IMG/VR virus record: IMGVR_UViG_3300037067_004728 | Coordinates: 41,377-105,376 of that record | Length of the DNA stretch: 64,000 nt | From: a virus | Taxonomy: Duplodnaviria > Caudoviricetes | Direction: 5' to 3' (one strand) | Part shown: positions 29,196 through 62,277 of the stretch, one piece after another | Layout of the letters: every line of letters begins with the position of its first letter | How positions within the stretch are numbered: the stretch's first letter is position 1 | Notes under the pieces: generated by a model | Databases searched by the model: none | Told to the model about the DNA's origin: nothing | What the model saw: only the letters and a program-made list of their open reading frames with translations | Made by a program: the position numbers and the translations under genes

Positions 29196-29342
29196 ATGTT
29201 AAGCACATTTCACTGGTTTGTAGTGGCTTTGGTGGCCTTCTTGCTCTTTGGTAACAGATTGCCGTCAGTGATGAAGTCATTGGGGCAGGGAATCAATGAG
29301 TTTAAGAAGGGATTAAACGATCCAGACGAACCGAAGCATTGA
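29196..29342 (+). CDS. tatA: twin-arginine translocase TatA (not in ORF track, 48 aa)
   Basis: translates MLSTFHWFVVALVAFLLFGNRLPSVMKSLGQGINEFKKGLNDPDEPKH: TM, FG hinge, amphipathic helix, FKK. Confidence 0.9.
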   Translation: MLSTFHWFVVALVAFLLFGNRLPSVMKSLGQGINEFKKGLNDPDEPKH

Positions 29343-29413
29343 TATTGATGCCGTGGCTTGTACCACGAGAAGCAGGATTATGCCTGCCGGTTCGCATTTT
29401 TAGGAGATTTATC

Positions 29414-29557
29414 ATGGTTACTTTTGGTCGTGTACCCTTGACGCCGGATGAACGTAAAGCCCGCCGTCGTAAGGTATTGGCGGTGTTGGGTGTGCTAACC
29501 GCGATTGGCGGCACTATTGCCGGTCTTATTGCGGCAGGCGTTGCATATTTTAAGTAA
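29414..29557 (+). CDS. 47-aa basic/hydrophobic peptide resembling a twin-arginine signal
   Basis: aggag RBS; ARRRKVLAVLG followed by a Gly/Ala-rich hydrophobic stretch. Confidence 0.55.
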   Translation: MVTFGRVPLTPDERKARRRKVLAVLGVLTAIGGTIAGLIAAGVAYFK

Positions 29558-29629
29558 GCCGCTGTAGAATAGTGGTTAGTTTACCGGCCCTTCAAGTCGG
29601 ATACCTGGGTTCGAGTCCCAGCAGCGGTA
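29558..29629 (+). tRNA. tRNA-Glu(TTC)
   Basis: gccgctg/cagcggt acceptor, CCTTCAA loop, GGTTCGAGTCC. Confidence 0.85.
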
Positions 29630-29631
29630 CT

Positions 29632-29705
29632 GTGACTGTAGCTCAATTGGTTAGAGCGGCAGGTTGTGGTCCTGCATGTTGCGGGTTCGACTCCCGCCAG
29701 TCACC
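29632..29705 (+). tRNA. tRNA-His(GTG)
   Basis: gtgactg/cagtcac acceptor, TTGTGGT loop, GGTTCGACTCC. Confidence 0.9.
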
Positions 29706-29966
29706 TTATGAATAATTATAAACTCGCGGAAATAATCAGCAGGGGTATTAGAGCAAGAGGCTACAAAAGCAAGTCTCACCGATTACATCAGTTATTCGGT
29801 GGTAAATGGATTTATGACTATAGGTGTAGTTGGTGGTGTGATGATGATAAACGCCATGTTAGCCGATGCTCAGCCGGTGTTGATGAATTTGATAATGAGG
29901 TAGGACCGCCAGAGTATTGGTTATATGGTGATGGCGAACCGAAACGAGTTTATTTTTAGATTTTAC

Positions 29967-29994
29967 TTGACAAACTGAGTTTTTGAGATATAAT
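29967..29994 (+). promoter_or_regulatory. sigma70 promoter for the Y RNA-Ro60 operon
   Basis: TTGACA-N16-TATAAT; predicted start about 30001. Confidence 0.85.
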
Positions 29995-30001
29995 TAAGTT
30001 A

Positions 30002-30062
30002 TAGGGCCGAAGCGGCTAGGTTATCACTGTTAATGATTCCGCCTACCGCGTTCCTTGCCCTA
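30002..30062 (+). ncRNA. Y RNA copy 1
   Basis: TAGGGCCGAAG...CTTGCCCTA bulged-C Ro-binding stem, GGTTATC motif; upstream of Ro60. Confidence 0.8.
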
Positions 30063-30225: not shown

Positions 30226-31830
30226 ATGCACAATTTGGCTAAGCACATTTCCGTTAAGACAACCCCTCAAAGCCGCGCTATCCCTGGTAAGAATCAGGTG
30301 CAGAATAATGCTGGCGGCTTTGTTTATTCCCTCGACTGTTGGAAGCGTTTGCAGAGATTCCTTATTCTAGGGTCAGATGGCGGAACTTATTATGCTACGG
30401 AAGCCAAGTTGACGATTGACAATGCTGGTGTGGTTGCCGAATGTGCAGCCACGGATGCACGGCGAACAGTCGATATGATTGTGGAAATTAGCCAGTCTGG
30501 TCGCGCACCGAAGAATGATGCGGCTATTCTTGCACTGGCTATTCTAGCCGCCAATGATAATGATGCTGTGCGACAATTGGCTTTGTCGGCGGTGTCAAAG
30601 GTTTGCCGTATCGGAACCCATATTTTCCAGTTTACGGCGGCATGTCGTGAATTGCGTGGTTTCGGTCGTGGGTTGCGAGAAGCAATTGCAGGCTGGTATA
30701 ATGATAAGCCCGTTGCTGACCTTGCTTATCAGGTTACAAAGTATCGAAATCGTGCAGGATATACGCATAGGGATTTGTTGCGGCTAAGCCACCCCAATCC
30801 TGTCAGCGAGCAACGTGATGATTTGTACGGTTGGATTGTTGGCAAAGGTAAGAACTGGGTTGAAGCCCCTAATGTCGATGATCCTTTGGCTTACACGTAT
30901 GCACTTGATCGAATCGGCGAATTGGACCCGGCAAGTTTCAGGGATGCAATCCGACTGATTGAGGACTATAATCTAGCGTTTGAGCATGTACCGACTTGCT
31001 TCTTGAATAATGCTAATGTTTGGGATGCCTTGTTGCCGAATCTCAAGCCGACTTCATTGATCCGAAATCTTGGTAAGATGACTACTGTTGGCTTGTTGAA
31101 GCCGTTGTCTAAGTCTACAAGCTATGTCTGTGAGGTCTTGAACAATGCGGAGCGAATTCGTAAGGCACGGGTACACCCACTTTCTATCTTACTGGCGCTG
31201 AATACTTATCAGCAGGGGCATGGGTTACTTGGCAATCTATCGTGGCGTCCTGTTCCTCAGATTACGTCGGCCTTGGAGTCCGCATTTTATCTGGCCTTTG
31301 ATGCCGTTGAACCGACGAACAAGCGGCACTTTTTGGCTGTTGATGTTTCTGGGTCGATGGGTTGGTCATATTTGGCTAATACCCGCTTGTCGGCTCGTGA
31401 GGCTTCTGCTTGCATGTCGCTGGTGACTAGCAAGGTTGAGCCGAATACGTACACGCTTGGATTCTCGGATGAGTTGACTGATTTGGGTATCACGTCTCAT
31501 TCTAATCTGAATGACGTATTGAATACGATTAAGAATCTCCGTATGCGTCGTACTGACTGTGCTTTGCCTATGATCTATGCGAAGCAGAATAAGTTGGAGG
31601 TTGATGCGTTTATTGTCTACACTGACAATGAGACATGGTTTGGGAGTATTCATCCCAGTCAGGCGCTTGACCAGTATCGTCAGGCCAGCGGTATTGATGC
31701 GAAGTTGATTGTAGCTGGTATGACGGCCACAGGCTTCACTATTGCTGACCCCAATGATACAGGCATGTTGGATGTTGTCGGTTTTGATGCCGCTTGCCCG
31801 GCTATTATGGCGAATTTTGTGAGGTCTTGA
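30226..31830 (+). CDS. rsr: Ro60/TROVE domain RNA-binding protein (Rsr)
   Basis: NNAGG, RFLILG..GGTYY, KYRNR.G.THRDLLRLSHP, DVSGSM vWA, TDNETW, DVVGFD. Confidence 0.95.
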   Translation: MHNLAKHISVKTTPQSRAIPGKNQVQNNAGGFVYSLDCWKRLQRFLILGSDGGTYYATEAKLTIDNAGVVAECAATDARRTVDMIVEISQSGRAPKNDAAILALAILAANDNDAVRQLALSAVSKVCRIGTHIFQFTAACRELRGFGRGLREAIAGWYNDKPVADLAYQVTKYRNRAGYTHRDLLRLSHPNPVSEQRDDLYGWIVGKGKNWVEAPNVDDPLAYTYALDRIGELDPASFRDAIRLIEDYNLAFEHVPTCFLNNANVWDALLPNLKPTSLIRNLGKMTTVGLLKPLSKSTSYVCEVLNNAERIRKARVHPLSILLALNTYQQGHGLLGNLSWRPVPQITSALESAFYLAFDAVEPTNKRHFLAVDVSGSMGWSYLANTRLSAREASACMSLVTSKVEPNTYTLGFSDELTDLGITSHSNLNDVLNTIKNLRMRRTDCALPMIYAKQNKLEVDAFIVYTDNETWFGSIHPSQALDQYRQASGIDAKLIVAGMTATGFTIADPNDTGMLDVVGFDAACPAIMANFVRS

Positions 31831-33302: not shown

Positions 33303-33833
33303 ATGAAACGGCTATTTGATATATTGGCTAGTAGTGTCCTGTTAATTGCATTGCTGCCACTAATGATTTTAATTGCTGCCGGGGTCAAGTTGACTTCGCG
33401 TGGTCCTATTTTCTTTCGTCAAGTTAGAATTGGCTGGTATACTGAACCCTTCCAGATTTGGAAATTTCGGACGCTTTATACCGGCAATCACGTTGGTCAA
33501 GTAACACGAAATGATCCACAAGTTACATGGTTTGGTAGATTTTTGAGGAAAACTTCTTTGGATGAGCTACCACAACTATGGAACATTCTTATCGGTGATA
33601 TGTCCTTGGTTGGTCCTCGGCCATTGACGCCGAATTTTTATTACGAGTACAATATCCCTATTGAACGTAGTATTGTTCGTCCTGGGTTGACTGGCTTGGC
33701 TCAGATATTGGGCCACCGTGGAATTTGTGACATGGCTACCCGTGTTAAATTAGATTTGGAATATAAACCATCCGTTAGCGGCGATTTGAAAATCATTATT
33801 CAAACAATACCAGTCGTGTTTACTGGGTATTAA
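33303..33833 (+). CDS. bacterial sugar transferase (polyprenyl-phosphate phosphoglycosyltransferase)
   Basis: KRLFDI, KFRT, LDELPQL.N.L.GDMSLVGPRP, PGLTGLAQ. Confidence 0.95.
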   Translation: MKRLFDILASSVLLIALLPLMILIAAGVKLTSRGPIFFRQVRIGWYTEPFQIWKFRTLYTGNHVGQVTRNDPQVTWFGRFLRKTSLDELPQLWNILIGDMSLVGPRPLTPNFYYEYNIPIERSIVRPGLTGLAQILGHRGICDMATRVKLDLEYKPSVSGDLKIIIQTIPVVFTGY

Positions 33834-38707: not shown

Positions 38708-40781
38708 CGGGTTTACTAATCAATATCGGTATCCTCTTTATGGGTGTCTGGTGCTGGCAGTTTATCAAAGTAATTGACAGCCCAGCCGATCCGAAAGCGG
38801 AAGCGGATTTTTGGAAAGTTTGTTTTTTCACAGAGTATTGGCATGGACCTGACGACAAGATTTAGAATCCTGAATACGGAGCTAGAATTTCTACCCGTTG
38901 CTGAACGCATGGCCCAATTAGCAGCCCCGGATAAACGCAATAAGGTGATACGCCTCATTGCCGCTATTGACCAGGATATTGCTAAACAACGGGACGAGAT
39001 AGACCGGGAGGTAGAATGGCGCAGGTAGTATTGCTAAAACCACGGGTTACGGTCCAAGACCTAAAAATGGTCGAACTTGATTTAGGAGAGGCCGAAATTG
39101 ACGCCCGTGAAGAGGGCTACCCAAAGATGGCGGATTGTTTGGGCCGGATGAAAGCGGCAATTCGATCCATGCTTTTTGATTTGGGTGAAGCTCATTGGCT
39201 AAACGCCACCCAAGAGAGTGAGAATCACTAATGTACTTTGTGCTAGTCAAGGTAACGGATAAGGGAAAAGAAACTCTTGTCGATTTTGCCGATTGTCCCA
39301 ATGAGTTGGAATATCATCGTTTGCAACACTGCTACGAATGGTTTGTTTATGCTCATTGGATAAATGGCACACGTACAAAGATTGCGGCAGTGAATTGGTC
39401 CGGTGGTGCAAGCTATTGTTTCGATGACCCGTATGCAGAGAATCGGTGTTGTATCAAAGAACACGATCATATTGTCCCAATGGTACGCGGGGCATTGTTT
39501 TACAACCATTTATTTAAGCGGTATCAGGATTGCCAAACGGCAAAGACGATTGCCGTGTTTCCAGTGGATGCGTAATTATGCGTTTTATTCTACGTGATTA
39601 TGCGGATAGTGAAGTGGCCGATATTGCGGTAGCTGACACTCCCGCCGAACTTTTCGATAATATCTCTTTGTTGAGTGGCCGTATCTGGCGGGTTATTGCC
39701 GAACATGATAGTGGTGCCCGTGGTGAAGATGTTGCGGTTATTGACTTAACTACCGGAATACATGGTTATAATGTCTTTAATCATCAGACCGTTTCTCATG
39801 CTGACCACATGACAAGTGCAGTGTGTATGGTTCGTAACTTGTTGCAGCATTATTATGTTAATGGGAAACTTAACGATCATGTTGATTTACTGGGTGTGAG
39901 GGTTTGCCCGGCATGAGTGAATTTTTCTCATTTACCGTGAATTGCATTTATACCGATTTTGTTCAACGAATTGACTTTGATCGGTTAGAGGATGCGCGGG
40001 CTTATTATGATCGGCACATTTATGACAAACGAATGTGTCTTATCGAATTGGTTGGATTTAGTTGTTTGCTCGGCAGTCTTACGATTTTGTCAAGCCCCCG
40101 ACTTGACAAACCAAAAAAGTGAGGTATGATTCACGTATGCGAGAAGTAGAAAGCCTGTTGCTTGAACTTGATACCGACGAAATTCAGGAATTCGCGGAAC
40201 TTCATTGTGGTTGGTATGATTCTGACTACTATGATGAATGTGAATACGATGAGGAATACGACGAATGGGAAGGCCCACGGGATGGCTATTCTATCGTCGA
40301 TTCGGCTCTTGACGCTATCCGCGAATGGGTGGGCGAAGCGCCTGAAAATATCGAGGTTTTGAGAAGCTATGTCACTGTTTGATGACGTGCATTGCCGAAC
40401 AAGGATATTTAGTTTGATCGGTCGCCCGGTCATACTTACGCATGAATACTACCCTAATAAGCCCGGTGTGATTGTGGCAAAGGGCAAAGGTATGAATTTT
40501 CGTATCCGGCTTGACAGCGGTAGTGAAATCTGGTTTGCTAGAGCAGACTTTAAGTTGCCGCCCTTGCCGCCGGAACAACGCCGCCCGGAATGGGTATCAG
40601 ACTATTCATCGGGTTTTGATTATGAGGGATTAGAGGGTTTCTAATGACTGCGTATCAAAAAGCAGAATTAAGCGGGCGGATTCAATACTACTTGAAACGC
40701 GCCGAAGATGCAATCGACCATTATGAGTTTGCGAAATTTGATGAGTTTGTTGCCATAGCAATTAAACTCCGTCAACAATAT

Positions 40782-41130
40782 GGGGACGAATCGGATTCGA
40801 CCGGATAGCTAGAAGTGTAGGATGCGTGCCGTGGTTGGACGACAGGCCACGTAAAAAGTCGCCCGTTAAATCTTAATTGCCAAGCCTAGCTTTGCAATGG
40901 CTGCGTAAAGCAGCCCCGGTTGAGAGTCCTAGCCCGATGGACTTGACTACCGGCCATAAATCGGGACCGCCTTGACCGACGCCAGTGAGTCAAGGTTAAA
41001 TAAACTGGATAGCAACCCGCCAACCTTGTCGATTTGGGAAGCGGGAAGCGAAATATCAAAAATCGACTATGCACGTAGACGACTGCATGGAAGTATCGCG
41101 GGACGCGGGTTCAATTCCCGCCGTCTCCAC
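40782..41130 (+). ncRNA. ssrA: tmRNA
   Basis: GGGGACGAATCGGATTCGAC 5' end, GGTTCAATTCCCGCCGTCTCCA 3' end, tag ORF 40879-40908 AKPSFAMAA*. Confidence 0.92.
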
Positions 41131-41390
41131 TTAACCATAGCTCGGCAGTTATGGTGCCGCCCGTTGTGGCCGGGCGGCAATTTTATTTGGAGGTTTTATG
41201 GATCGTGAATTAGTAGAAACTGTGCGTGATTTTGTGAAAAATGGTAAGGTGTTTGTGCATCTTATCACAGAATCTAAGATTGTCGAATTTCCTGCCAGCG
41301 GTGTGCATAGTGCGGGCGGGTATTTGGTGGTCGAAGTCAAAATTCCAGAGCTACCACTTGACAAGCATTAAATGTGTGGTAGTATTGAAT

Positions 41391-42069: not shown

Positions 42070-43350
42070 ATGCCGAGTTGTTGGGAATGTGGTGGCGATT
42101 TTGCTTTGTCCGAGTTGACGCAACGCGGGCAAGCCCATTTTTGTCAACAATGCTACGCCACTTTATATTGCCGCTGTTCGGTATGTGGCCGGGAAGTTGA
42201 ACATGATGAGGCAATTTTTAGTGCCACCGACCACCGGCCATACTGTCAGGCTTGCTATCAAGAGCGGTTAGTACACTGCCATAATTGCGGGCGCGAAACA
42301 AACAGAAACACTCGGCACACAATCGAGGACCATAGCTATTGTAGCTCATGCTTTGATCGGTTGTATACGCATTGTGCTAACTGCGATACCATTTTGCATC
42401 GGCATGATACGTGGTCCACCCCCGGTAACGATAGATACTGTCAACGCTGTTTTGACGAAAATTGCAGCGTATGTAGCCGTTGCGGTGAAACATTTTGGAA
42501 TTGCGATATGCGCCGTACCGACCACGGCGTATTTTGTGATGAATGTTATCGTGAAAATGATGAGTGGTCGGCGGGCGAATTCATTATTTCCGATCCGCAT
42601 TATGATGTAATCGGATCGAAACGCCGCTATGGTGTCGAACTTGAAACTTCACGATGCAATGATTATCGGTCACTGCATGGCAATACAATATGGGAATGTA
42701 AAACAGATTGCTCGATTGAGGGGCGCGAGTTTGTTTCCCCAATTCTGTGCGGGGATGAGGGGTTAATGGAAATCACTGCATTTTGTACCATTGCTCGCCG
42801 AAAGCGTTGGCAAGTCAATAGATACTGTGGTTATCATGCCCATTTCGATGTGGCCGATGAAAGCTGGGAAGCCTTGCGAAGTATCGCGTATGCGTACCGC
42901 AAAACGTATGACTTATGGTGTTGTCTAGTGTCAGAACAACGGGCAAACAACCCTTATGCTGGGTCGCCGGATTATATGCCAGAGGATGTACGGGCTATTC
43001 GCAATGCTTCCGATTGGGATTATTTTGTCGGTGCGCGTGACCGATTCGAGTTTGTCAACTGGCGGGCTTATCTGGTACACGGAAGTTTTGAGGTTCGATC
43101 CCATGATGCTACTCTTGACGCGAATGTCATTTGTAACTGGATTAAACTTCATGCTCGCTTTATGGATCGTGTTAAGACAATGACTCTTGACGAAATTGAC
43201 GACCAATTTAGTGGTAACATAGCATCACAATTTGCAGCTTTGAGCGAATTTGTGGGTGAAGAATTATCTTTGGAATACGCTGTTATTGCCGAAGAATTTG
43301 GGCATACCCTCATACCGAGGGAGATTGTGGCCCTTGCCCCGCCGTTTTAA
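42070..43350 (+). CDS. amidoligase (COOH-NH2 ligase, Amidoligase_2-like) with N-terminal CxxC repeats, paralog 1
   Basis: YGVELE, DCS..G.EFVSP.L.G, CGYHAH.D, R...N, EVR.H. Confidence 0.8.
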   Translation: MPSCWECGGDFALSELTQRGQAHFCQQCYATLYCRCSVCGREVEHDEAIFSATDHRPYCQACYQERLVHCHNCGRETNRNTRHTIEDHSYCSSCFDRLYTHCANCDTILHRHDTWSTPGNDRYCQRCFDENCSVCSRCGETFWNCDMRRTDHGVFCDECYRENDEWSAGEFIISDPHYDVIGSKRRYGVELETSRCNDYRSLHGNTIWECKTDCSIEGREFVSPILCGDEGLMEITAFCTIARRKRWQVNRYCGYHAHFDVADESWEALRSIAYAYRKTYDLWCCLVSEQRANNPYAGSPDYMPEDVRAIRNASDWDYFVGARDRFEFVNWRAYLVHGSFEVRSHDATLDANVICNWIKLHARFMDRVKTMTLDEIDDQFSGNIASQFAALSEFVGEELSLEYAVIAEEFGHTLIPREIVALAPPF

Positions 43351-43480
43351 TTTTGACTTGACTTTTCCACGACCTGTGGTATAGTTAATAGAGTGAGGGG
43401 CGATAAAAAGCCGTCGCCTAGCAAAACTCACTAGGCTGTAGTAGCCCAACTGTCAGGCTTGTGAGAGTGAGGTATTTTGC

Positions 43481-44395
43481 ATGTGTGGTTTGTTTGGTGC
43501 GATTGGTTTGGGTTGGAATGAGGGCGTCATTAGGGCGCTGACGTGGGCGAACCAAGAGAGGGGTACAGATTCTCTTGGTTTCTTCGATTCGTCCGGCAAG
43601 ATGATTAAGTGTGCTGAAACCCCCAGTGATGCGCTGTGTAAGGATAACATTTCGCGCTGGCTTGATGCGTCTTGCCGTGGGTCTGAAAAGCTGGGTCGGG
43701 CCGCGAGTTGGTTTATTGCCGGGCATACTCGGCTTGCCACCCGTGGTAAGGTGAACCGTCAGAATTCGCACCCGTTCCGATACGGTCGAATTATCGGTTC
43801 CCACAATGGAATGATCGACGCCCCCAAGGGGTATGTGGTCGATTCGCAGCATTTGTTCGATGCGTTGCACAAGGCCAAGGGTGACTATAATTCGGCATGG
43901 GCCGATATTACGGGTTACTGGGCGGTAACGTGGTTTGACGATAATGCTTTCTATCTGCAAGTCCATAATGGCGACTTGACGGTGGCCCGTAAGGGAGAGG
44001 TATGGTACTACTCCTCGGCATGGTCTCACCTGGAAAGCTGCATCGGCACTGCCGATGAGGTTATCACGCTGAAAGAGGGCGAAACCCTGCGGTTTACTCT
44101 TGAAAATGGCGTGATTGTCAAGTCCGATGCTCCTAAGTTTGTGTCGGCTGCCCCGGATTACTGGGTTAAGAAATACGGTTGCAGCAATACCAACGATTGG
44201 GAGGATGAATACTACGGGTCGGGCCGTTCCTTCCGTCGTCACGGTAGCCGTGGCAAGGGTTCATGGTACGATCACCATGATTACACAAGCACGACTACCC
44301 CAACAAGCACGGGCACTGTCAAGGATTATGATGCCGATTGGCGGGAAGCATGGGAAGCCTACTCTACGGAGAGTGAACACGCCAAGGTTGACTAA
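43481..44395 (+). CDS. class II glutamine amidotransferase
   Basis: N-terminal MCGLFG, RG.DS.G, GHTRLAT.G, N.HPF, HNG, VDS. Confidence 0.9.
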   Translation: MCGLFGAIGLGWNEGVIRALTWANQERGTDSLGFFDSSGKMIKCAETPSDALCKDNISRWLDASCRGSEKLGRAASWFIAGHTRLATRGKVNRQNSHPFRYGRIIGSHNGMIDAPKGYVVDSQHLFDALHKAKGDYNSAWADITGYWAVTWFDDNAFYLQVHNGDLTVARKGEVWYYSSAWSHLESCIGTADEVITLKEGETLRFTLENGVIVKSDAPKFVSAAPDYWVKKYGCSNTNDWEDEYYGSGRSFRRHGSRGKGSWYDHHDYTSTTTPTSTGTVKDYDADWREAWEAYSTESEHAKVD

Positions 44396-47766: not shown

Positions 47767-49269
47767 TGTTTTCAGTTAGACAAAAACGCGAAATCGCCGA
47801 CGCCGTGCAACGTATTCTAAGGGATACTAACCACCCCGAATTGCCCGCCGGTGAGATTCAATTCAAGCTGCATGTTGATGGTGCCCGACCAGGAAGTAGT
47901 TGGGCGGATATACAGAATAACGGGGCTGTACCGAATCCAACGGTTAATCCGCATAATGAGCGGCAGGATTCACTTGACAAACCAACAAAATAAGGTAGAA
48001 TAGATTATATGAAATACGCCATTCGATTAAGTCACCTACCGCCCGTCGTTATCTACGCCACCCTCAAGCGCTCGGCTGAGGATGTTGTAGCGGCCTTGTG
48101 TGAGGAAGCTACCGAAGCGAAGCAATGCGGCATGGGTATTTGTGGTTATGTCAACAAGGTTCTACGCTGGTTGTCTGACGATCTTCTGTGCGAATCGTGC
48201 CAACTGGTTGAAGATGATACCCGACTTGTCTTTACCGATACGCGGGATGCTGATTATCTTATCACTAAGACGGATAAGGGCTTTGACGTGGTGCGCCTAA
48301 CCGATTCGTATGATCGGGAGCTATTGGGCCGATAAGCATGATATTCAACGAATGGTGGACGCGATACGGTAGTGCTTGTGTTGGCATGGAAACTATGCAA
48401 GAGGTAGCCCGCCTAGCTTATGAGGAGGGGGTTAAGGCTGGGTATGATACCGGATATGATGAGGGTTATTCTAACGGCTATGATACCGGCAGCAATGACG
48501 AAAGAGAGGTTCATTTCGGATGACATTCGATCAGTGGTGGGAAGAAAATAAAGAGGATTGCACATACTCCGAACTGCCAACCGACGTGATAAAGTTGATT
48601 GCGATGGCTGCGTATGATGCCGGGTGGGAGGAAGGGTGGGACAAAGGCTGTATTGTCCCGTCAATACAATGAGATACGCAATACAAACCCCCATTGCTGT
48701 TTTCTGTTGCCGATTGTTTTTGCCAAAACAATTAGTGATAGACCGATTGCATACACGTAATACGTCATGCGCGGGGGTCTACACTAGAACACGTTGGATA
48801 CACGAAAAGTTACTTGCGATGAATCCATCGTTGGCTATCTTGGACCATTTCAACCAGGATGATGATAGACTTCCTAGCAATCAAACCCCGGAAGAATGGT
48901 GCGAAGTACGAATCTTTGCCTATGATTTAGGATTCTGAAAATGAAGTATGCCGTAATTATGAGGGACGTGATTTTCTGTTGTGAATTGCACGATACCCCT
49001 ACCGATGTTCTTAACGCCTTGAATGAATGGGATAACCATGATCTTGGCCCCTTTCAGCGTAAGAGTCTAGCCCGCGATTGCTTGGAAGATTTGGAATTGA
49101 ACCAGTGGCATAGCGGCGATGTTCATGTTATCGAGGATAGCTTGCCGCTGATGGACAACCAGCCGGTCAACCATTGGGCGAATCATGTAATCTTGTGGGA
49201 TGCCACTAGCGGCTTTTATTTTGAGCGCTGTTTATCGGGCGATTGCGGCAACTGTAACTGTGGTGGGAA

Positions 49270-49842
49270 ATGCTAACCAGTTTGCAATTTACTGAGAAGT
49301 GGCGTTGCTTTGCAGAGGGCGATACTATTAAGTTTCGCCCCGGCGTTAATCTACTGGTTGGCGATCAAGGCAGTGGTAAGAGTAGCGTACTACAGGCTAT
49401 TGCAGCTAGTGCTAAGGCAAAGAAATACACGTATCAAGTTGACCTTGGCAAAAAGGTCAAGGTGGTGGCTGATAAGATGCCTGCGGGCGGCTTTGATTTT
49501 GAGAAGGATAACCGCCGTACACGTCCCTACTTTGACCATGATAATTTTCAAGCACACATAGCAATGATGTGGTCAAGCCACGGGCAATCAAACCTTGCAA
49601 TCTTGCGTAGTATGGCAAAGATGCAAGGTACTTTGATATTCCTTGATGAGCCGGATATGGCCCTTAGCATACGGTCGGTCTACAAATTGATCGACCTGTT
49701 AAATGCGGCTGCTATTCGTAAATGTCAAATTGTTGCCGCCGTTCATAACCCGATTTTAATTCAGGCATACCCCGAAGTTTACTCATTAGAAAAACGAAAG
49801 TGGGTATACAGTGACGAATTCATTTTGAGTCAAACACCATGA
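49270..49842 (+). CDS. ABC/AAA-type ATPase
   Basis: GDQGSGKS Walker A, SHGQ signature, FLDEPD Walker B, H-loop. Confidence 0.85.
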   Translation: MLTSLQFTEKWRCFAEGDTIKFRPGVNLLVGDQGSGKSSVLQAIAASAKAKKYTYQVDLGKKVKVVADKMPAGGFDFEKDNRRTRPYFDHDNFQAHIAMMWSSHGQSNLAILRSMAKMQGTLIFLDEPDMALSIRSVYKLIDLLNAAAIRKCQIVAAVHNPILIQAYPEVYSLEKRKWVYSDEFILSQTP

Positions 49843-51170
49843 TTCAGTGGTACGTTATAGTACGAAAAGATAATGGCTATCCGCTACAAATTTATGCGGA
49901 TAAGGAACTAGCAGAACAGATTGCCCGTGCGAATGGCGAGAAAGTTGTACCCGTAACCCCGGTGACAAAATGACTTGGTATGAAGCGATTAGCGAGTTGT
50001 GCTTGCAAGTTGATAGTGAAGAAACTATCAAAGATATTCTAGCGACGGCGGTTGATGAGTGTATGATTACGTCGCATGATGCCGATAGCATTGCTAAAAT
50101 GGTTCATGTAGTGAGGCCAGTATGAAAAACGAACAATTTGAGGAATGGTGGGCGACAATGGAACCCGGTTTTCGGGACGTGCAACCCGTGCTGATGTTGG
50201 CTTTCAAGGAAATTGCCGAGAAGGCATGGGATAATGGTTTCGATTGTGGATGGGATGCTTGTGGCGATACACTTTACTGGGGAACCGATGGATAAGGAAT
50301 TCGAGAAGTGGTGGGCTGCGGTCGAGCAATCGGCCCCGTGGATGCGCCTGCGCGGCTTGGACTATGCAATCAAGGCGATTGCATGGTCAGCGTGGAAAGC
50401 TAGTCGAGGTCTAATATGATTTATGCTTTGGTAAGCGGCGGCAAGTTTCTACACGGCCTCTATACTGATCCTCGAAAAGCTGCGGCATTGATTGCCCGGC
50501 AAGATAAGTATGGCGATTGGGATGCCATTACCGCTTTGCTGGCGGCTGGGGAAGCGTATGCTTGTTGGACACTGATACCCTTGTCGCTTGACTGTGAATT
50601 CAAGGGGGACATACGGCTATGAAAGTACAATTTTTCTGTGATAGCGGGGCTAACATTCATTCCTGCCATAAGTCTGGTATCTTGGATACTGTCAAAGATT
50701 TGGGGCTTGATGATGATGAGTGGGAAGCACTCTCGGATAATGAAAAGTATAAGTTAGCTGAGGAATGGGCTAACAACTACCTGGAAATCTACTTCGAGGA
50801 ATCCTAATGCACATCATCGGATTCGTACCGCCTGAATGGCTTGATGCCATTGTCGAGTCAATGAACGCGGAATTTCCAGGGTGGTGTTTTTCAGGTGTAG
50901 ACTTGGATACCATTGTAGCTGAGTATTTGCCCCATGATGCAATCATGCCCTTGATTGAAGCCTACCTTGACGGTGTAAATGATGCGTGGGAACTATGATG
51001 GAATATAAACACTGGCGAATTATGATCGGGCAACGCAAGGATGGTTGGTATTACCTTGTGGAGATATTGCCCAACAAAACATTCAAGGCCACTTATGGCC
51101 CGTTTGCCGGGCCAGAAAGTGCGGAGTATGACGCTAAGCAAGTGATTGATGTACTCGAAAAATACTTGGA

Positions 51171-51266
51171 GTGGTAGCGCTTTAAGACGTGCCGGATTCA
51201 TGGCCGGAAGGGTGCAAGTCCCAATAAGGTCTAGTAGACCAACCGGGTGCAAGGCCCGGCTATCAT
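51171..51266 (+). ncRNA. tRNA-like RNA with two T-loop hairpins
   Basis: 7-bp gtggtag/ctatcat stem abutting ccggg-TGCAAGG-cccgg; second ggg-TGCAAGT-ccc; followed by terminator. Confidence 0.45.
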
Positions 51267-52362
51267 TCTAAAGCCCGCTATACCGGATGGCCGGTCACTG
51301 GCGGGTTTCCTTTTACCCAGGGGGTCTAATTGTCGGGGTCGATTTTTGTTGAAAATAAACCCCAGAAATTTTAAGGCCCTATACGGCAGATTATCGGGGT
51401 CATATTCGATGTCCAATTCGGACGTACAATTATCGGGGTCATGGATTAACTTATATTTTAGTTATATTTCTTGGACCCCGCTATTCCGAATTATCCGACG
51501 CTCTAACCCAGAAATTAAAAAGGTTAATTGCTGATAAACTGTGACCCCGATAGTCGCCTGTATGTTGCTGGCGTCACTAAGGGTTTATCCGATTCTAGCC
51601 GCACGGCAAGAATCCCTCACAGATTTTTACCGCTGGCCTTGACTTTGTTGCAAAACGTGGTATAGTTAAGATGTTGAGGGAAATTGTGCTACCGAAAACT
51701 TATAGGAGATACAGCCAACCGACTTTCAATTCCGTAACCGCTTAAAAGCTACTGCCCGCCTTGATACTGTAAGTATCTCTATGTCGGGATTCCCGGTACT
51801 CGCGGTAGAATAGCCGTATCATCGGCACTATAAGTCTTGGCAACGCAACCTCTTGCGGTAATCCTTGTTTCGGCCTCAATGCTTGTAGCTGGTTGTTGTT
51901 CCTCCCTTGCACACGGGCGGGTAGGTGTGTGGCCTATCCCGCCCATTCTTTTTGTCCGATTAAGTCGATTGTCGGGGTCATGGATAACATAAAAATTTTT
52001 ATGTTGCGCTTTTTTCGGCTCGCTAACCCCAGGTAAAATAAGAACTTACGACTTTTTGGATTCCAGCTTGGTGGAAATTTGAGGGTCGCAATGTAGGGGA
52101 AACCGGCACCCCTTGACCGTTATAATTGATATAATCGGCCAAGTAGCGGTACAATCGTTAAGATCGTTAAAACCGTTAGAACCGATAAGATTATTATAAA
52201 CGATCTAATCGGAAACCCCACTGGGATCGGCACAAGAGTTGTGACCGATACAACCGGCAGAATTGCAACGTATTGACGTTGCAATCGGTAGAATCGCTAC
52301 AATCGGTAGCATTTGACGGTCTAACCGTCAAAATCGCACCATTCGCTATCCTAACACTATCT

Positions 52363-52390
52363 ATTATACCACGCCGTTGTGGTTTGTCAA
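52363..52390 (-). promoter_or_regulatory. leftward sigma70 promoter
   Basis: TTGACA-N16-TATAAT on - strand. Confidence 0.75.
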
Positions 52391-52668
52391 CTACAATCCA
52401 GATAAACGGCCTTTTCTGGTTGGCGGGGTGATGCCAAGATTGTCGATTGTCGGGGTCATGGCATTTTACGCGCCTGCGCGTAATATAGTATAATGTCAAA
52501 ATCTGCGCCGGAATAATTGTAAAATGTGATAGATCGAAAAAATCTGTTGCAATCTGAAAAAATCTTTGCAGGTTTCCGAACTATCGGCCAATTTTGCTTG
52601 ACACCCGCCGACGGCATGGTAAGATACAATGTAAGTCTGATTTTCCCTATCTAACGGAGGGCTAGGCA

Positions 52669-54078
52669 ATGGCGATAGCTACGTCGAAAATCGAATTACC
52701 CAACCATACACAATGCCCGGATTGTCGGCAATGGTATGAGGGGGAAGGGGCAACGGCATACGGCAATGGTGACACCCGTACAGTATGCCCTAATTGTGCG
52801 GAATTGGCGGGATATGTTGCTTGTGACGATTGCGGCAAGCTATTCCCCGAATTGCACGATTGCGACGGGGATAACTATTGCGACGATTGCGCCGATTCGC
52901 ACGGGTTTAAGCAATGTTCGCAATGTGACGAATGGATGGATTCTGACGATCTGGAAGAATATGACGATGAGTTGTATTGCCGGGAATGTGCCGATGCCGC
53001 CGATCTATACCATTGTGACGATTGCGGCAAGCTATTCCACACTGACGATTTAACCGATTGCGACGGTAACTACTATTGCGACCGTTGCAAGGATAACAAT
53101 GGGTATACGGAATGTTACCATTGCCATGATACTATCCATCGGGACCATTGTAGCACGGGTGCCGATGATGAGGATTATTGCGAATCGTGCTGGTGTGACC
53201 ATTTTTCGGTTTGTGAGGATTGTGGCACAACTATCTGGACTGACGATTGTGTCTATACTAGGGATGCTTGCTATTGTAGCGATTGTGCCCCTGGTGCCGA
53301 GAATTACGAACCGAAGCGTTTTGACGGTTCTAACAATACTTTCACAAAAATCGGTCAGCGCGCCTTTGGCGTAGAAATCGAGACTGACGAATGTGATGGT
53401 TATGAGGATTACGACGGTCGGGGCGCCTTTGGCGCAAAACCCGATGCTTCCGTAAATGGCAAAGAGTTTTATTCTGACATTCTTTCCGGGGATAAGGGTC
53501 TTGCGGAAATTGAGCAGTTTTGCCGTTTTGCGGATCGTAACGGTTTTGCCGTTGATTCCAGTTGTGGGCTTCATGCCCATTTTGACATGCGGAACGAAAA
53601 TAACGATAGCATGAAGTCTATCGCTTGTGCCATGCTTTCCACTTATGAGGTTTGGAAGGCTTTTGTCGATGAGGCAAGACACGACAATCATTACTGTCAT
53701 GCTAGTTGTGCCAGTTTGGGCGAAGTTTACGGCGTTACCGATTTTAGGGATTGGGGCGGTCGTAGGCGTCGTTACGAATGGCTCAATTTTGTGGCCTATT
53801 ACGAACATAGGAGTATTGAGGTTCGGTTGCATCATGGCAGTCTTAACGCCACTGAGATATGTAACTGGATTAGGGGTATTTCCTTGTGGATGGATTGGGC
53901 CGCAAGTAAGGGTTGGAAGGAAGTAAGGGATTCTCTGATTTACAAGAGTTATGCCGAAAGATTCGCCCTTATGTGCAAGGTTTGGGAAAATGCCGGTTGT
54001 GCCGATCTTGTCGATTGGTTCAAGGAACGGGTTGAAGCATCGGAAATCGAATGGGCCGAATTAGCCGAAGTAGCCTAA
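52669..54078 (+). CDS. amidoligase paralog 4 with long acidic CxxC repeat N-terminus
   Basis: FGVEIE, DAS..G.EF.S.IL.G, CGLHAH.D, RY..LN, EVRLHHG. Confidence 0.8.
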   Translation: MAIATSKIELPNHTQCPDCRQWYEGEGATAYGNGDTRTVCPNCAELAGYVACDDCGKLFPELHDCDGDNYCDDCADSHGFKQCSQCDEWMDSDDLEEYDDELYCRECADAADLYHCDDCGKLFHTDDLTDCDGNYYCDRCKDNNGYTECYHCHDTIHRDHCSTGADDEDYCESCWCDHFSVCEDCGTTIWTDDCVYTRDACYCSDCAPGAENYEPKRFDGSNNTFTKIGQRAFGVEIETDECDGYEDYDGRGAFGAKPDASVNGKEFYSDILSGDKGLAEIEQFCRFADRNGFAVDSSCGLHAHFDMRNENNDSMKSIACAMLSTYEVWKAFVDEARHDNHYCHASCASLGEVYGVTDFRDWGGRRRRYEWLNFVAYYEHRSIEVRLHHGSLNATEICNWIRGISLWMDWAASKGWKEVRDSLIYKSYAERFALMCKVWENAGCADLVDWFKERVEASEIEWAELAEVA

Positions 54079-56340: not shown

Positions 56341-56661
56341 TTGTCGGTTATGTTTTGGGTGCTAACAGACTGGGGGTGTAACATGGTTACAAGAGAAGGG
56401 GTTGCCGATAGTGTCGCGCGGGTGGTCAAGCTACTTGATAACCCCCGCCTTGCCCCTTGTCCCCGTAATTCGGTTGTGCGGGATGCAAGGGCTGCGCTGA
56501 TTGCGCAGATTTTTTGGGGTGATAGGGTTCTTGCCGCCTATAGGGATGGTATCGACCCTATGCCCTTTGCCGACGAAATGGCGAAAGCCTATCATCGGGG
56601 TCATGCCGCGCTTGACAAGTTTGTGGATTGTATCCGAAACAAGGATTGCAACGGGGTCTAA
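56341..56661 (+). CDS. hypothetical protein, paralog of 47482-47766
   Basis: AR..LI.QIFWG...LA..RDG. Confidence 0.55.
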   Translation: MSVMFWVLTDWGCNMVTREGVADSVARVVKLLDNPRLAPCPRNSVVRDARAALIAQIFWGDRVLAAYRDGIDPMPFADEMAKAYHRGHAALDKFVDCIRNKDCNGV

Positions 56662-56662
56662 C

Positions 56663-56971
56663 ATGGTCAATATGTTTTGTGAGGATTGCAACGGTTGCGA
56701 TCATTGTGAGTGTTGCACCGATTGCACGAATTGCATGAATTGCGGGTTTTCCTACAAGTCTACCCGTTGCGTCAAGTCGTCGCATGTTATCAGGTGTAAC
56801 GAGTGTGTCGATTGTGACGTTTGCGAGAATTGCAATCATTGCATCGGTTGTCACGATTGCAAGGATTGTGAGTATTGTATCGACTGCGGGGGTCTTGTCG
56901 GTCGTAAGTATTGCATCGGTGGTAGGCAATATACCGAAGCAGAGTTTTTTACCGTATTGGGCAGGGCATGA
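56663..56971 (+). CDS. CxxC-repeat cysteine-rich protein
   Basis: continuous CxxC repeats ending ..YCI..QYT..EF. Confidence 0.6.
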   Translation: MVNMFCEDCNGCDHCECCTDCTNCMNCGFSYKSTRCVKSSHVIRCNECVDCDVCENCNHCIGCHDCKDCEYCIDCGGLVGRKYCIGGRQYTEAEFFTVLGRA

Positions 56972-58575: not shown

Positions 58576-58971
58576 TTGAAATGCATAATTGAAACGCAAA
58601 AAGCTATTTATGCCTTTTTAATTTCGCCGAACGAATGCACACCCCCCGGACTTAACTTTACGTTTCAATTGACACAAACTACAGGCTGGTAAGGGTTTAA
58701 AGCAGGCTCTCACGCACACTTAGGGCAGATTGAAACTCAAATATATATTTCTCACGAGGAAAAGTTTTACTACGCGAGAGAAAATATATTTTTGTATATA
58801 AGGGAGATGTTTCCAGGGACAAAAGCATACATTTGCGTTTCAATTAGAAACCCGGCGTCCCAAGTCCAGGGCAGGTAGCTTGTTAGGAATTGAAACGCAA
58901 AGATAAAACCCTCATTTTGGCGAAATCGCGCCCTCAAAAACACAGGTATGCGTTTCAATTATGCATTTCAA
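58576..58971. repeat. block bounded by 23-bp perfect inverted repeats with internal AATTGAAACG copies
   Basis: ttgaaatgcataattgaaacgca at 58576-58598 and its reverse complement at 58949-58971. Confidence 0.8.
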
Positions 58972-59314
58972 TCACAGTCCCATACGTCCCTGTACGTTTG
59001 AGTTTTATTAAACGCGACCATATTTGAGGGCATGTTGCTTGTTCGGGAGTGACCTTATGATTATTCACTATCATTCCAAGCCGCTTGTATAAAGTGCTTA
59101 TGGCTATATTACCACATGCCTGATGATGCAGTTGATAGATAGTAGAGTACCGCTTCCCTGACAACTCGAAGAATTCAGGCACCACGGCCACTTCTGGCGG
59201 CAGGTCGCGTAATCGCTTCCGAAGAATATGAATGGTACTTACATAACAACGCGGATGCTCAAAAAGCTCCTGTGCATTTGCAAACTTCTGACCCCAGCAT
59301 ATAATCATACGCAA
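58955..59314 (-). CDS. small protein with two HTH-like repeats
   Basis: G..F....EL...IHILRKRLR and G..Y....QL...ISTLYKRL. Confidence 0.45.
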   Translation of the reverse strand: MRMIICWGQKFANAQELFEHPRCYVSTIHILRKRLRDLPPEVAVVPEFFELSGKRYSTIYQLHHQACGNIAISTLYKRLGMIVNNHKVTPEQATCPQIWSRLIKLKRTGTYGTVIEMHN

Positions 59315-59523
59315 CTCCTATAACTTTTGAAGTTGATACCATCCATGAATAATTCAAGCCAGTTATCCGCATAAACCCTGACTTCATAAGAATGCCCATC
59401 TGGCTCAACACACCGATAAATTATAGTCAAATATTCCATAATAAATTTACCCAATCTATAATATGAGTGTAAATATAAAGCATACCAGCGGCTAGTACCA
59501 TGATCCAAAAAAGACAAATCAAA

Positions 59524-59979
59524 TCATCTAATAGCTTCATATTCTATAATCTCCACTCGCTCTATCACATCACCTTGTTTAATAGCATTAACTACATTCA
59601 TACCTTCAATAACCTGACCAAAAACACTATGTTTACCATTAAGCCAAGGACAGTTGCAGTGGCAGATGAAAAACTGGCTTGAAGACGTATTTGGTCCGCT
59701 ATTCGCCATCGACAAACAACCAGCAGTATGCAGGAGGCGAGGGTCAAATTCGTCTGGTATGAGGTAGCCCGCACTTCCGAACCCCGTTCCTAGCGGGCAG
59801 CCGGTTTGAATCATAAAATCAGCAATTACTCTATGAAATTTCAAGCCATCATAAAAGCCTGCGTTGACAAGATTCTCGAAATTTGCTACTGTATTAGGCA
59901 CAAGTGGTGATAGTGCTGCTACTATAATCCCTCGATTTGTTGTAATAATTACTGTATCAAGCCCCATGAGCGTAAACAC
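59524..59979 (-). CDS. cyclophilin-type peptidyl-prolyl isomerase
   Basis: FYDGLKFHRVI..FMIQ.G, LSMANSGPNT..SQFFI, HSVFGQV. Confidence 0.95.
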   Translation of the reverse strand: MFTLMGLDTVIITTNRGIIVAALSPLVPNTVANFENLVNAGFYDGLKFHRVIADFMIQTGCPLGTGFGSAGYLIPDEFDPRLLHTAGCLSMANSGPNTSSSQFFICHCNCPWLNGKHSVFGQVIEGMNVVNAIKQGDVIERVEIIEYEAIR

Positions 59980-60099
59980 CTTTCCATATATTCAGGGAAT
60001 CGTTGATCTTCGACTGTGGAATCATCAGGCAACAAGCCCGTGGCTAACCAATGAAGATACTGTTCATGTGTTAGCTTCCATCCAGCAAGCTGTTCGAGT

Positions 60100-60369
60100 T
60101 CATGTTTTGTCATTGAAATACCGATAATAGATGGCCTGCCCGACCCAAACCGTGTTGGCTGTTACCACACCGAGTCCACCAACTAGACTCCACCACGCAT
60201 TCACATAAGGGTAAAAGTACAAATTCCAGAACCCCCAGGCGTTAAAAAAGATCATTGGCAGGAGGCTAACGCCCTTCAACTCTTTGTCAAGGTAGAGTTG
60301 CCAACAATTTTTAGCAATGACAACCCCGCCCAGAAGTTCAAATCCACCGTTGATTATATCAGGTAACAT
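60100..60369 (-). CDS. PQ-loop/SemiSWEET-like 3-TM membrane protein
   Basis: three hydrophobic segments with Q.Y..K...GVS motif. Confidence 0.5.
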   Translation of the reverse strand: MLPDIINGGFELLGGVVIAKNCWQLYLDKELKGVSLLPMIFFNAWGFWNLYFYPYVNAWWSLVGGLGVVTANTVWVGQAIYYRYFNDKT

Positions 60370-60778
60370 TCATCACCCTCTCTGTATATTTCCAAGCAAA
60401 CGGCACCCACAGCACCCAATATCCTGCATCATGCAATTTTGATACCATTTGCTGGCCTGCCGCTTTATTGAGGGTATGCACAATGATTTTATCAATCTTT
60501 GGTTTGTGTTCAATAATCCAGCGCACAACCTCCATGCCTGTATCAGGATCGGCAGAATTCGCGGCCTCTTTCCCACCGAGGTCGTGATCTAAGAAAACCC
60601 AATCCCACTTAACCCAACCCAGATTCTCGCCGTCGGATAAAAAGTTAATACAATCAACAGCCGTAGCCACAGTAATCGCCGACGGTACTGCCGACCGGAA
60701 TACTTTTGTTCGTTCAGGACAATCATCTAGGAACAGAATACTCATTTTATCTCGCTCTATGCTTTTGCACCGTCGCAA
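60359..60778 (-). CDS. cyclic-phosphate-processing receiver-like domain protein
   Basis: ILFLDD..R, FLDHDLG, TG..V..WI, VHT.N. Confidence 0.7.
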   Translation of the reverse strand: MRRCKSIERDKMSILFLDDCPERTKVFRSAVPSAITVATAVDCINFLSDGENLGWVKWDWVFLDHDLGGKEAANSADPDTGMEVVRWIIEHKPKIDKIIVHTLNKAAGQQMVSKLHDAGYWVLWVPFAWKYTERVMNVT

Positions 60779-60993
60779 TTTTTGGAATCATTCGGACCAA
60801 CCGTATTGAACCGATTTCATTGGCCAACCACCTTGGACTTGCCCGCAGTCAAGACAGATAACCAATTCAATTTCACCTTCGCCTTCCACATTTGTCCCGA
60901 TAAGACGAGTAGCCCCAGTACCTTTAATGTAGGCTAATTTATCAGATTGGCAAGATTGACATTTAGAAGGCAAGTTTGTTGTAGTGGGGAGGG

Positions 60994-61440
60994 TTAATTG
61001 CATACTTTGTTCCTTACAATATTACGCAAATCATACGTAGCAAATTTTCGGATATTTTTTGGATTCACAGGCCCGGTTAGAAAATCAAATGGCTTAGCAT
61101 GGTGTCCAAAATACGGGCAATCTAAATCATGTGTTAAATGTAAAGTATCGTCAGGGTGATTATGTGTATATTGACAATATGCTGATATGCTTGGATCAAA
61201 TTTTAGCTTTAAACCGACTAACCGGATGCTTTGATGTTGACTACCTAATGCAACTAACATGCCAATCAGTTCTAATCCATGTAAAGGACGGGGCCAAATC
61301 CAAATAGCCCCAGGCCGGATTAGTTCACCAATGGTATCACGAAACCTCTCATAATAGTGTGAAGCTACAGAATGTGGTAGCAGGCCACTTATCCGTATTT
61401 CGCGCCATTGTTTTAAGGTTGTGTAGTGATACCCTAACAT
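60994..61440 (-). CDS. ADP-ribosyltransferase/Tpt1-like fold protein
   Basis: YHYT....W..I...GL.P N-terminus, V.PKNI C-terminus. Confidence 0.4.
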   Translation of the reverse strand: MLGYHYTTLKQWREIRISGLLPHSVASHYYERFRDTIGELIRPGAIWIWPRPLHGLELIGMLVALGSQHQSIRLVGLKLKFDPSISAYCQYTHNHPDDTLHLTHDLDCPYFGHHAKPFDFLTGPVNPKNIRKFATYDLRNIVRNKVCN

Positions 61441-61566
61441 ACGTAATTCACTTTTAAAACTTCGAGGGCTGCCATTACATCATTAAAAGCCAATTGCGCT
61501 GACTCTTGAGCCGTGTTGGTATCCTCTATGGTCCCCTCAGTCGCGCCCTCAAGAATGTCGAACAAG

Positions 61567-62277
61567 TTATCGAGACGTTTTTGTACTTCTGTTTTTACGC
61601 GAACTAACATATTTTACTCCTAACCCTAGAAAATAAAGTAATGAGAGACAACCAGCCAGCCATAACATACTACATGGGTCTGGCGGGGTCAAAACTGCTG
61701 AGATAGCAACAATAGTAAAGATAGCCTGACGCCAGTATCCCGCCCAATTGATAGGTAAAACAAGCATGACTAATGGCAATTGAAATCCAATACCAAAACA
61801 AATTGGTAAAAGAACCGCAAAATTCAGCCATGCTGACACTTGTGGCTGAATATCTACGCCTAAAGTTTTATTATACCCAAGTAGAAAGTTCAATATTGGC
61901 TCAAAAACTTGCAAAGCTACAATGTTACCCAATACAAACAAGCAAAGACTAGCAGGCAGCCAGCGAATAAGCCGTCGTTCATGCGGGTATAGCCCCTCTG
62001 CAATGAATTTCCAGACTTGATAGAATATCCAAGGACTTGCAATTATTGTACCGAGGGTTAAAGCCGCCCGTAAATACAAATCAAATGCTTCTGTGACCGT
62101 AAAACTTGTTAAATGCGTAGAAAAGCCATTAGCAGACAGGGCTTTGACAAGTGGTTGCTGTAGTAATTTAACAACGGGCGTTGCAATAACACAACCGACA
62201 ACAATTCCGACTACCCATCCCAAGAGGGAGAGGATCAATCGTCGTCGTAGCTCAATAAGATGGTCCCAGAATGTCAA
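61567..62277 (-). CDS. tatC: twin-arginine translocase TatC
   Basis: MTFWDHL.ELR.RL, YQVW.FI..GLYPHERR, FQLPLV, SAVLTPPDP.SM. Confidence 0.93.
   Translation of the reverse strand: MTFWDHLIELRRRLILSLLGWVVGIVVGCVIATPVVKLLQQPLVKALSANGFSTHLTSFTVTEAFDLYLRAALTLGTIIASPWIFYQVWKFIAEGLYPHERRLIRWLPASLCLFVLGNIVALQVFEPILNFLLGYNKTLGVDIQPQVSAWLNFAVLLPICFGIGFQLPLVMLVLPINWAGYWRQAIFTIVAISAVLTPPDPCSMLWLAGCLSLLYFLGLGVKYVSSRKNRSTKTSR

Follow-up and report, generated by a model that had tools for sequence, protein, structure and literature searches.

Genes for core-sized TatA and TatC proteins, of planctomycete origin, in the genome of a tailed phage

To our knowledge, twin-arginine translocation (Tat) is the only general export route for folded proteins, and it has so far been treated as purely cellular. 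Two-component systems consisting of one TatA and one TatC exist, and such pairs suffice for transport (PMC13186574). In Bacillus subtilis, the TatAd-TatCd and TatAy-TatCy systems each combine one TatA-family protein with one TatC of about 240 amino acids (aa) and have no TatB of their own. A pair of one TatA and one TatC is likewise encoded on a 64,000-nucleotide stretch of a viral contig (IMG/VR virus record IMGVR_UViG_3300037067_004728, positions 41,377 to 105,376; hereafter the window), which holds a tatA and a tatC gene. Unlike the Bacillus systems, the phage pair is virus-encoded, its genes lie 32 kb apart on opposite strands without forming an operon, and no cargo gene such as phoD is adjacent. 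Furthermore, the host cell of the phage already has a TatA, a TatB-like protein and a TatC, and bifunctionality of the phage TatA is only putative. The window is the right-hand 64 kb of a linear contig of 105,376 bp (G000), for which CheckV estimates a completeness of 79%, and coordinates refer to the window unless marked G000 or prefixed with a locus label (L). We consider it rather probable that both are working auxiliary genes of a tailed phage infecting a Pirellulales/Thermoguttaceae-like planctomycete, in which they would add or maintain Tat capacity.

The tatA gene is part of a block flanked on both sides by tRNA genes:

28512..28593, + strand: tRNA-Leu(taa), called by ARAGORN and Rfam; left flank of the tatA block, with the same tRNA in L086, L087 and L088
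28628-28897, + strand: ORF89, a conserved open reading frame (ORF) of 89 aa upstream of tatA
28900-29202, + strand: ORF100, a conserved ORF of 100 aa directly upstream of tatA, overlapping its start
29196..29342, + strand: tatA, encoding a minimal TatA of 48 aa (PF02416 and TIGR01411)
29558..29705, + strand: tRNA-Glu(ttc) and tRNA-His(gtg), called by ARAGORN and Rfam; right flank, with the same pair after tatA in L086, L087 and L088

An earlier note on this DNA, made from the letters alone, had proposed a 48-residue TatA among tRNA genes. This is borne out by translation of the reading frame and by the Pfam and NCBIfam cut-offs, with 41.7 bits for PF02416 (cut-off 21) and 56.2 bits for TIGR01411 tatAE (cut-off 53.9); these scores, like those of TatC given below, lie far beyond chance. 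A six-frame search of G000 found exactly one TatA-family gene (40.1 bits). It starts with the ATG at 29196, overlapping the stop of the upstream ORF, and its orthologues start at the same residue. The protein shows the architecture of the TatA family, with a short transmembrane (TM) helix and no C-terminal tail: a histidine at position 6 (H6), a hydrophobic run of 12 residues, an F18-G19 hinge, an amphipathic stretch reaching to K38 and an acidic DPDE end. It aligns with residues 5-50 of the Escherichia coli TatA 1-49 core construct (2LZS NMR structure) and ends at the same place as that construct (2LZS/2LZR), just past the acidic motif, although identity is only moderate and the polar residue of the TM helix is His instead of Gln. 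A TM anchor, the amphipathic helix and a few further residues suffice for TatA function, the C-terminal domain being dispensable (PMC13186574). The putative function of the phage protein is support of Tat-dependent translocation.

The order ORF89-ORF100-tatA is preserved in L086, L087/L088 and L089, and ORF100-tatA in L090. The whole block from tRNA-Leu through ORF89, ORF100 and tatA to tRNA-Glu and tRNA-His recurs in independent NCBI and Logan contigs, and the ORF-tatA core in JGI contigs as well. A Pfam search with ORF89 and ORF100 gave no significant match. Across this synteny of five independent contigs, TatA is 74-83% identical to its orthologues of 43-47 aa, while its neighbours have drifted to 38-74%. 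Comparison of tatA with four orthologues gave proportions of nonsynonymous differences (pN) of 0.07-0.16 and of synonymous differences (pS) of 0.77-0.99, at which synonymous sites are saturated, pointing to strong purifying selection. The conserved positions are exactly those of cellular TatA. tatA is thus an old and syntenic gene within this phage group.

The tatC gene is found in an accessory island near the right end of the window:

59524..63188, - strand: accessory island with tatC, a cyclophilin gene, a gene for a cREC_REC protein and orphan ORFs; GC 41.6%
59524-59979, - strand: cyclophilin-type peptidyl-prolyl isomerase (PF00160, 148 bits)
60359-60778, - strand: cREC_REC receiver-domain protein (PF20274, 56 bits)
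61567..62277, - strand: tatC, 236 aa, TTG start (PF00902 and TIGR00945)
62274..62507, - strand: two-TM protein of 77 aa without Pfam match; its stop overlaps the tatC start (translational coupling)

Here, too, the translated reading frame agrees with what had been proposed, a 236-aa TatC on the minus strand. The protein scores 161.3 bits with PF00902 (cut-off 25.1), covering profile positions 1-206 of 208, and 136.3 bits with TIGR00945 (cut-off 132.7), and it is the product of the only TatC gene in a six-frame search of the whole G000. The start codon overlaps the stop of the upstream ORF (TTGA), with GGAG located 9 nt upstream. The TatC is of canonical size (about 240 aa) and aligns end to end with Aquifex TatC (4B4A). 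An AlphaFold (AF2) model predicts six long helices with moderate confidence (predicted local distance difference test, pLDDT, 73; predicted template modelling score, pTM, 0.60). In a Foldseek search with this model, all seven PDB matches at E <= 0.001 were TatC chains, with TM-scores of 0.75-0.79 to 4B4A; among them are the TatBC and TatAC complexes solved by cryo-EM in 2025. The model is thus consistent with the six-TM fold of TatC. A folding helper, the cyclophilin, shares the island with this gene for folded-protein export; a link between the two would be speculative.

The sequence of the phage TatC points to selective constraint. It retains 71 of the 89 columns that are invariant in 12 planctomycete TatCs, one further apparent loss being merely the TTG start, and agrees with the bacterial majority at 45 of 142 variable columns. 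Between both phage copies of TatC, which are 85% identical, differences fall on 6 of the 89 invariant columns versus 28 of the 142 variable ones. In a phylum-spanning alignment, E9, E100, H6, L10, R11, R13, P42, P82, Q87, W89 and F91 are invariant, and E9 and E100 are the equivalents of E. coli E15 and E103, the twin-arginine-binding glutamates. The signal-peptide-binding glutamates and other family-invariant residues are thus kept. The earlier note had named the lack of essential residues as a finding that would speak against a Tat function; E9, E100 and most of the host-invariant columns are present.

Phage identity of the source DNA follows from gene order. Of 220 ORF calls on G000, 76 are matched, in colinear order and with a mean identity of 50%, in G001, an IMG/VR record of a tailed phage of 147 kb rated 100% complete. 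No structural genes were found among the ORFs screened on G000. In G001, the large terminase, portal, scaffold, major head protein, tape measure and tail fibre genes adjoin the segment homologous to the left end of G000, and because this colinear genome carries the module beside the matching segment, G000 appears to be a tailed-phage genome cut off before its structural module. By the CheckV estimate, about 21% of the phage genome (about 28 kb) is not on G000. The gene content of G000 includes a primase, helicase, DNA polymerase, exonuclease, RNA and DNA ligases and methyltransferases, as well as seven tRNAs, a tmRNA, a Ro60/TROVE protein and four amidoligase paralogues. The contig is thus that of a phage, as its IMG/VR record and its colinearity with a complete tailed phage indicate, and not bacterial, and both Tat genes lie inside phage DNA, whose composition they share.

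An artefactual origin has to be weighed for tatC in particular: host DNA joined by misassembly or at a provirus boundary, or dead cargo in the form of decaying recent captures. Only 1.7 kb separate the gene from the end of the contig, in the only two further IMG/VR contigs found with a generic TatC motif TatC likewise sits at an end, and every TatC-bearing 'phage' record in GenBank is a bacterial contig under a wrong label. However, the genes beyond tatC toward the contig end have homologues in G001: on its outer side, 63189-63440 matches the syntenic G001 segment and 63437-63817 a non-syntenic G001 gene, while on the inner side 58955-59314 has a G001 homologue. The gene has a GC content of 41.5%, and its GC content at third codon positions (GC3) of 34% is close to the phage median of 33% and 20-30 points under host GC; among the 80 planctomycete tatC loci examined, the median is 63% GC and the lowest value 48%. 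In addition, no cellular TatC is more than 54% identical to the phage protein. An identical TatC protein is on record for a contig of 133,985 bp, a length in keeping with the CheckV estimate of 79% for G000, a variant with 85% identity occurs elsewhere, and both Tat reading frames are intact and constrained. Because of the flanks shared with G001, the phage-like GC3 and the absence of cellular TatCs above 54% identity, a chimeric join or a recent capture of tatC is very unlikely, and the artefact explanation as a whole, already largely refuted, can be given hardly any weight.

The origin of both genes was traced among cellular genomes. In a search of 5.8 billion proteins, every named match of the phage TatC was a planctomycete protein (Thermoguttaceae, Pirellulales) with 42-54% identity, and all 80 best TatC loci among 185,579 species genomes belong to Planctomycetota. 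A maximum-likelihood tree was built from those 236 columns that the phage protein occupies, and TatCs of Proteobacteria and Firmicutes found in the mislabelled GenBank records served as outgroups. Here the phage TatC falls, together with its 85% relative P0003, inside a Pirellulales-type clade (ultrafast bootstrap 100; Shimodaira-Hasegawa-like approximate likelihood ratio test, SH-aLRT, 99), and quick trees agree. Only membership in this larger clade is claimed, as the sister group is freshwater Pirellulales in two trees, including the maximum-likelihood one, and Thermoguttaceae in one quick tree. TatA is 70-78% identical to Thermoguttaceae and Planctomycetaceae TatA across the first 40 or so residues. 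Among five genomes tested, its best match (66% identity) is the TatA of a Thermoguttaceae metagenome-assembled genome, G012; when 201 Planctomycetota genomes were sampled evenly, the best match for TatC came from G012 as well. A third marker is the phage tmRNA:

40782-41130, + strand: tmRNA (Rfam, 172 bits) with the tag peptide AKPSFAMAA

Full-length matches to this tmRNA were found only in G012 among the 201 genomes, at 75% and 69% identity. Because TatA, TatC and tmRNA all point in the same direction, a planctomycete host is well supported, with a Thermoguttaceae-like member of the Pirellulales as the working hypothesis at the family level. The earlier suggestion that a planctomycete-like TatA hints at the host agrees with these three lines, and the comparison with host tat genes that had been proposed as a check places TatC within the host clade.

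By tree and best matches, the chromosomal TatA and TatC of Pirellulales and Thermoguttaceae are the direct ancestors of the phage proteins, which thus derive from Pirellulales-type Planctomycetota. Like its cellular counterparts, the phage TatA has a His as the polar residue and a hinge and helix that read FGNRLPSVM-x-SLG, and the phage TatC shares their core motifs. The genes are unlinked in both: tatA does not lie beside tatC in any of the 80 planctomycete tatC loci, so that what the phage captured was not an operon. The hosts carry a second, TatB-like gene adjoining tatA. The TatA-like genes of two other phages, G004 and G005 (around position 10001 in L096 and L098), resemble this TatB-like paralogue rather than TatA, since they have LPGVARS.G.SF and their polar residue is a Glu. 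Either host paralogue may therefore have been picked up by phages.

The two genes differ in their history among phages. Nine further IMG/VR viral contigs of 55-527 kb carry TatA-like genes, and a six-frame search with PF00902 found TatC in none of these nine, four of which are rated complete. IMG/VR scans with the phage TatC and with a planctomycete TatC alignment gave no viral relatives, and a metagenome scan for close TatC relatives returned bacterial-type loci only. None of the island genes has a counterpart in G001, whose region matching the island lacks them all. Since the nine other TatA phages lack TatC and this G001 region lacks the island genes, tatC is a later addition to this lineage, with TatA alone as the rule. 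As to the co-occurrence of tatA and tatC, for which a survey had been proposed, G000 has both genes, whereas related phages usually have TatA without TatC. The minimal TatA-TatC translocase of the earlier note stands as a description of the phage gene set, as both genes are real and no TatB-like gene is seen on the 105-kb fragment, outside which about 21% of the genome lies. The pair is not a module, with its genes far apart on opposite strands and acquired at different times, and the description need not apply to the working complex, since the hosts have a TatB-like gene. The co-transcription and dedicated cargo gene typical of two-component TatAC systems are not found in G000.

That most phages of the group carry TatA only could also fit a role outside the Tat pathway, in which TatA is a small membrane-thinning protein that sets lysis timing or depolarises the membrane in a holin-like manner, and TatC is an unrelated or near-neutral extra. 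The tatA of G004 lies among small TM proteins and a lipoprotein-like ORF, a setting reminiscent of lysis cassettes. In G000 and its close relatives, however, tatA is located with tRNA and RNA-repair genes and not with lysis genes. Moreover, the conserved positions match cellular TatA beyond what a generic membrane disruptor would need, and a constrained TatC is left unexplained. We regard this role as quite improbable and a Tat-related function of both proteins as the better reading.

Both proteins have been altered relative to those of the host. Phage TatAs have 43-56 residues compared to about 78-83 in the host and stop right past the amphipathic helix and a short acidic patch; the protein described here (48 versus about 80 aa) lacks the MGG start and the tail of the host protein. 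Host-clade TatCs have about 350 residues because of an insertion of about 115 residues in the first periplasmic loop. The phage TatC (236 aa) and P0003 both lack this insertion, together with a 14-residue N-terminal extension and seven residues of the TM4-TM5 loop. GC is 41-44% in the phage, compared to about 63% in the host. The loss of the insertion is secondary, because all bacterial members of the alignment carry it and the phage branch nests among them. These alterations, together with the long TatC branch, could mean that the tail-less TatA and loop-deleted TatC form poorly active mixed complexes that throttle or redirect host Tat, for instance so that functions of the envelope or of defence are blocked or superinfecting phages kept out; the high identity to host TatA would permit such mixing. 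However, the deleted parts are known or expected to be dispensable: this holds for the TatA tail (PMC13186574), and the insertion is absent from most TatCs, including those of Aquifex and E. coli. In addition, the catalytic and recognition residues are constrained, which would be needless in a simple poison subunit.

The search for cargo bears on the same question. The scan of the phage proteome for twin-arginine (RR) signals that had been called for, based on a regular expression and hydropathy, found no convincing RR-signal protein on the 105-kb G000 or in the complete G001, only weak or spurious candidates, which fits interference. Near tatA, the only twin-arginine-like candidate, a weak one, is the following:

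29339..29557, + strand: candidate small ORF, 72 aa from a TTG or 47 aa from an internal ATG, with RRRKVL followed by a hydrophobic stretch of 26 residues

This ORF is absent from L086 and L087, in which tRNA-Glu directly follows tatA, and because it is not conserved in close relatives it may not be a gene; it was rejected as Tat cargo. A Cys-rich protein at 56501-56971 (+ strand) was likewise rejected, since its frame begins with MRRFFG and its true start is probably a later Met. The same protein has many CxxC repeats and a weak homologue in G001.

The scan did yield canonical signals beside tatA, at 0.2-1.1 kb from it, in two distant phages. In G004 (L096:8685-11223), an ORF starting with MKRRNFLK lies 1.0 kb upstream of tatA and a lipoprotein-like ORF starting with MLRRDLLK 0.6 kb downstream, and these two convincing RR-signal ORFs of the 129-kb genome thus flank tatA. 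In G008 (L097:9998-10790), an ORF starting with MNRRLFLAG lies 0.2 kb downstream of tatA. Such neighbours favour use of the pathway over its blockage, although they do not identify a cargo in G000. Weighing this with the retained residues and the dispensable nature of the deleted parts, we consider interference with or takeover of host Tat unlikely and keep to a working, auxiliary Tat function.

Such a function could have arisen and operate as follows. An ancestor of the phage group would have captured a host tatA and trimmed it to the TM helix, the amphipathic helix and the acidic end, and this lineage would later have taken a host tatC, from which the large periplasmic insertion was lost. 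During infection, the phage TatA would insert into the cytoplasmic membrane and there join host TatA or take its place, as the two hardly differ in their hinge and helix motif. The phage TatC would bind twin-arginine signal peptides through the retained E9 and E100. With TatA, the subunit needed in excess, and the receptor TatC supplied by the phage, translocons could still be made, or more of them made, in the infected cell. A bifunctional TatA, like that of Bacillus TatAC, may take the part of TatB, or the host TatB-like protein may do so. The cargo may be host Tat substrates that are kept flowing during infection, or phage proteins encoded in the roughly 28 kb outside the contig. Of this scheme, the intactness of the genes, their host origin, their long residence in phage DNA, purifying selection and the identity of the contig as phage are shown, whereas assembly in the membrane, a partnership between phage TatA and TatC and a benefit to the phage are inferred. 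Several points weigh against it: the phage TatC branch is very long (about 1.9 substitutions per site); the structural model of TatC is only moderately confident; TatC is without loop segments that planctomycete TatCs carry and that may matter there; the two genes are distant, in opposite orientation and not co-inherited; and RR-signal proteins of a convincing kind are absent from G000 and G001.

A further-reaching possibility is that the separately captured, core-stripped tatA and tatC form a complete, self-sufficient viral Tat translocase, giving the phage control, during infection, over a route for folded proteins through the host membrane, perhaps together with a BCS1-type ATPase and the cyclophilin. 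We put this forward tentatively and are inclined to doubt it. If true, it would be the first viral Tat system as far as found, and no natural TatA/TatC pair that descends from a host system of three components would be smaller. The Rieske protein, a substrate of Tat in bacteria, is moved in its folded form by Bcs1 in mitochondria. The BCS1-type AAA translocase of jumbo phages is also a folded-protein translocase, present in G000 with an N-terminal TM anchor, but is an unrelated machine. A survey of 224 jumbo phages describes BCS1-type orthologues, while the terms TatA, TatC and 'twin-arginine' do not occur in it (Iyer et al. 2021, PMC7824862). The ATPase and the remaining annotated genes are as follows:

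G000 39987-41276 (= L003:9988-11277), ending 100 nt before window position 1: BCS1-type AAA ATPase with BCS1_N, AAA and lid domains
2-760, + strand: 284-aa protein whose gene immediately follows the BCS1-like one; it begins with a Sec signal peptide of the classical type (MMKRLLIALIIFLPNVVFAQQ) and, judged by eye, has motifs like those of M28 peptidases
25906-26745, + strand: RNA ligase
30226-31830, + strand: Ro60/TROVE and vWA protein, right after the tRNA cluster
33303-33833, + strand: membrane-anchored bacterial sugar transferase (PF02397, 198 bits), a further gene of the phage directed at the envelope
42070-43350, 44506-45561, 46550-47485 and 52669-54078, + strand: four amidoligase paralogues
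43481-44395, + strand: GATase-like protein among the amidoligase paralogues (42070-54078)

The BCS1-type ATPase is conserved in G001 (66%) and G004 (39%). The 284-aa protein looks like a secreted phage enzyme, and the Ro60/TROVE protein and RNA ligase look like a set for RNA quality control and repair; Rfam reported no Y-RNA-like family at the gathering threshold. The amidoligase and GATase-like set is also found downstream of tatA in related contigs.

Full-text literature searches found no dedicated report on phage-encoded Tat genes, and a 2026 review of Tat evolution does not mention virus-encoded ones. A TatC Pfam label for a marine virus occurs in a figure legend without comment (PMC10564846), and one family in PHROGs is TatC-like, its function being unknown. 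The TatC-bearing phage records of GenBank were considered as precedents and rejected, as they are bacterial contigs with a tatB-tatC-tatD context (for example of Salmonella) or UNVERIFIED_ORG entries; the mislabelled records OR848130, OR844992, CAKLQF020000015 and AFYI01000004 are of this kind and would yield false positives in surveys of phage Tat genes. A phage with both Tat subunits, each cut to its core, thus appears to be new, whereas the Tat machine itself is known.

For the Tat family, the phage pair offers an experiment of nature as to which stretches of TatA and TatC can be spared, the planctomycete-specific loop among them, and a compact TatA/TatC pair for heterologous export work. 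We know of few phages for the phylum Planctomycetota, and the assignment to Thermoguttaceae-like Pirellulales, well supported as to the phylum and a working hypothesis as to the family, would provide a firm host for a group of uncultured phages of 100-175 kb. If the two genes work as proposed, control of host protein export would be a new class of phage auxiliary function.

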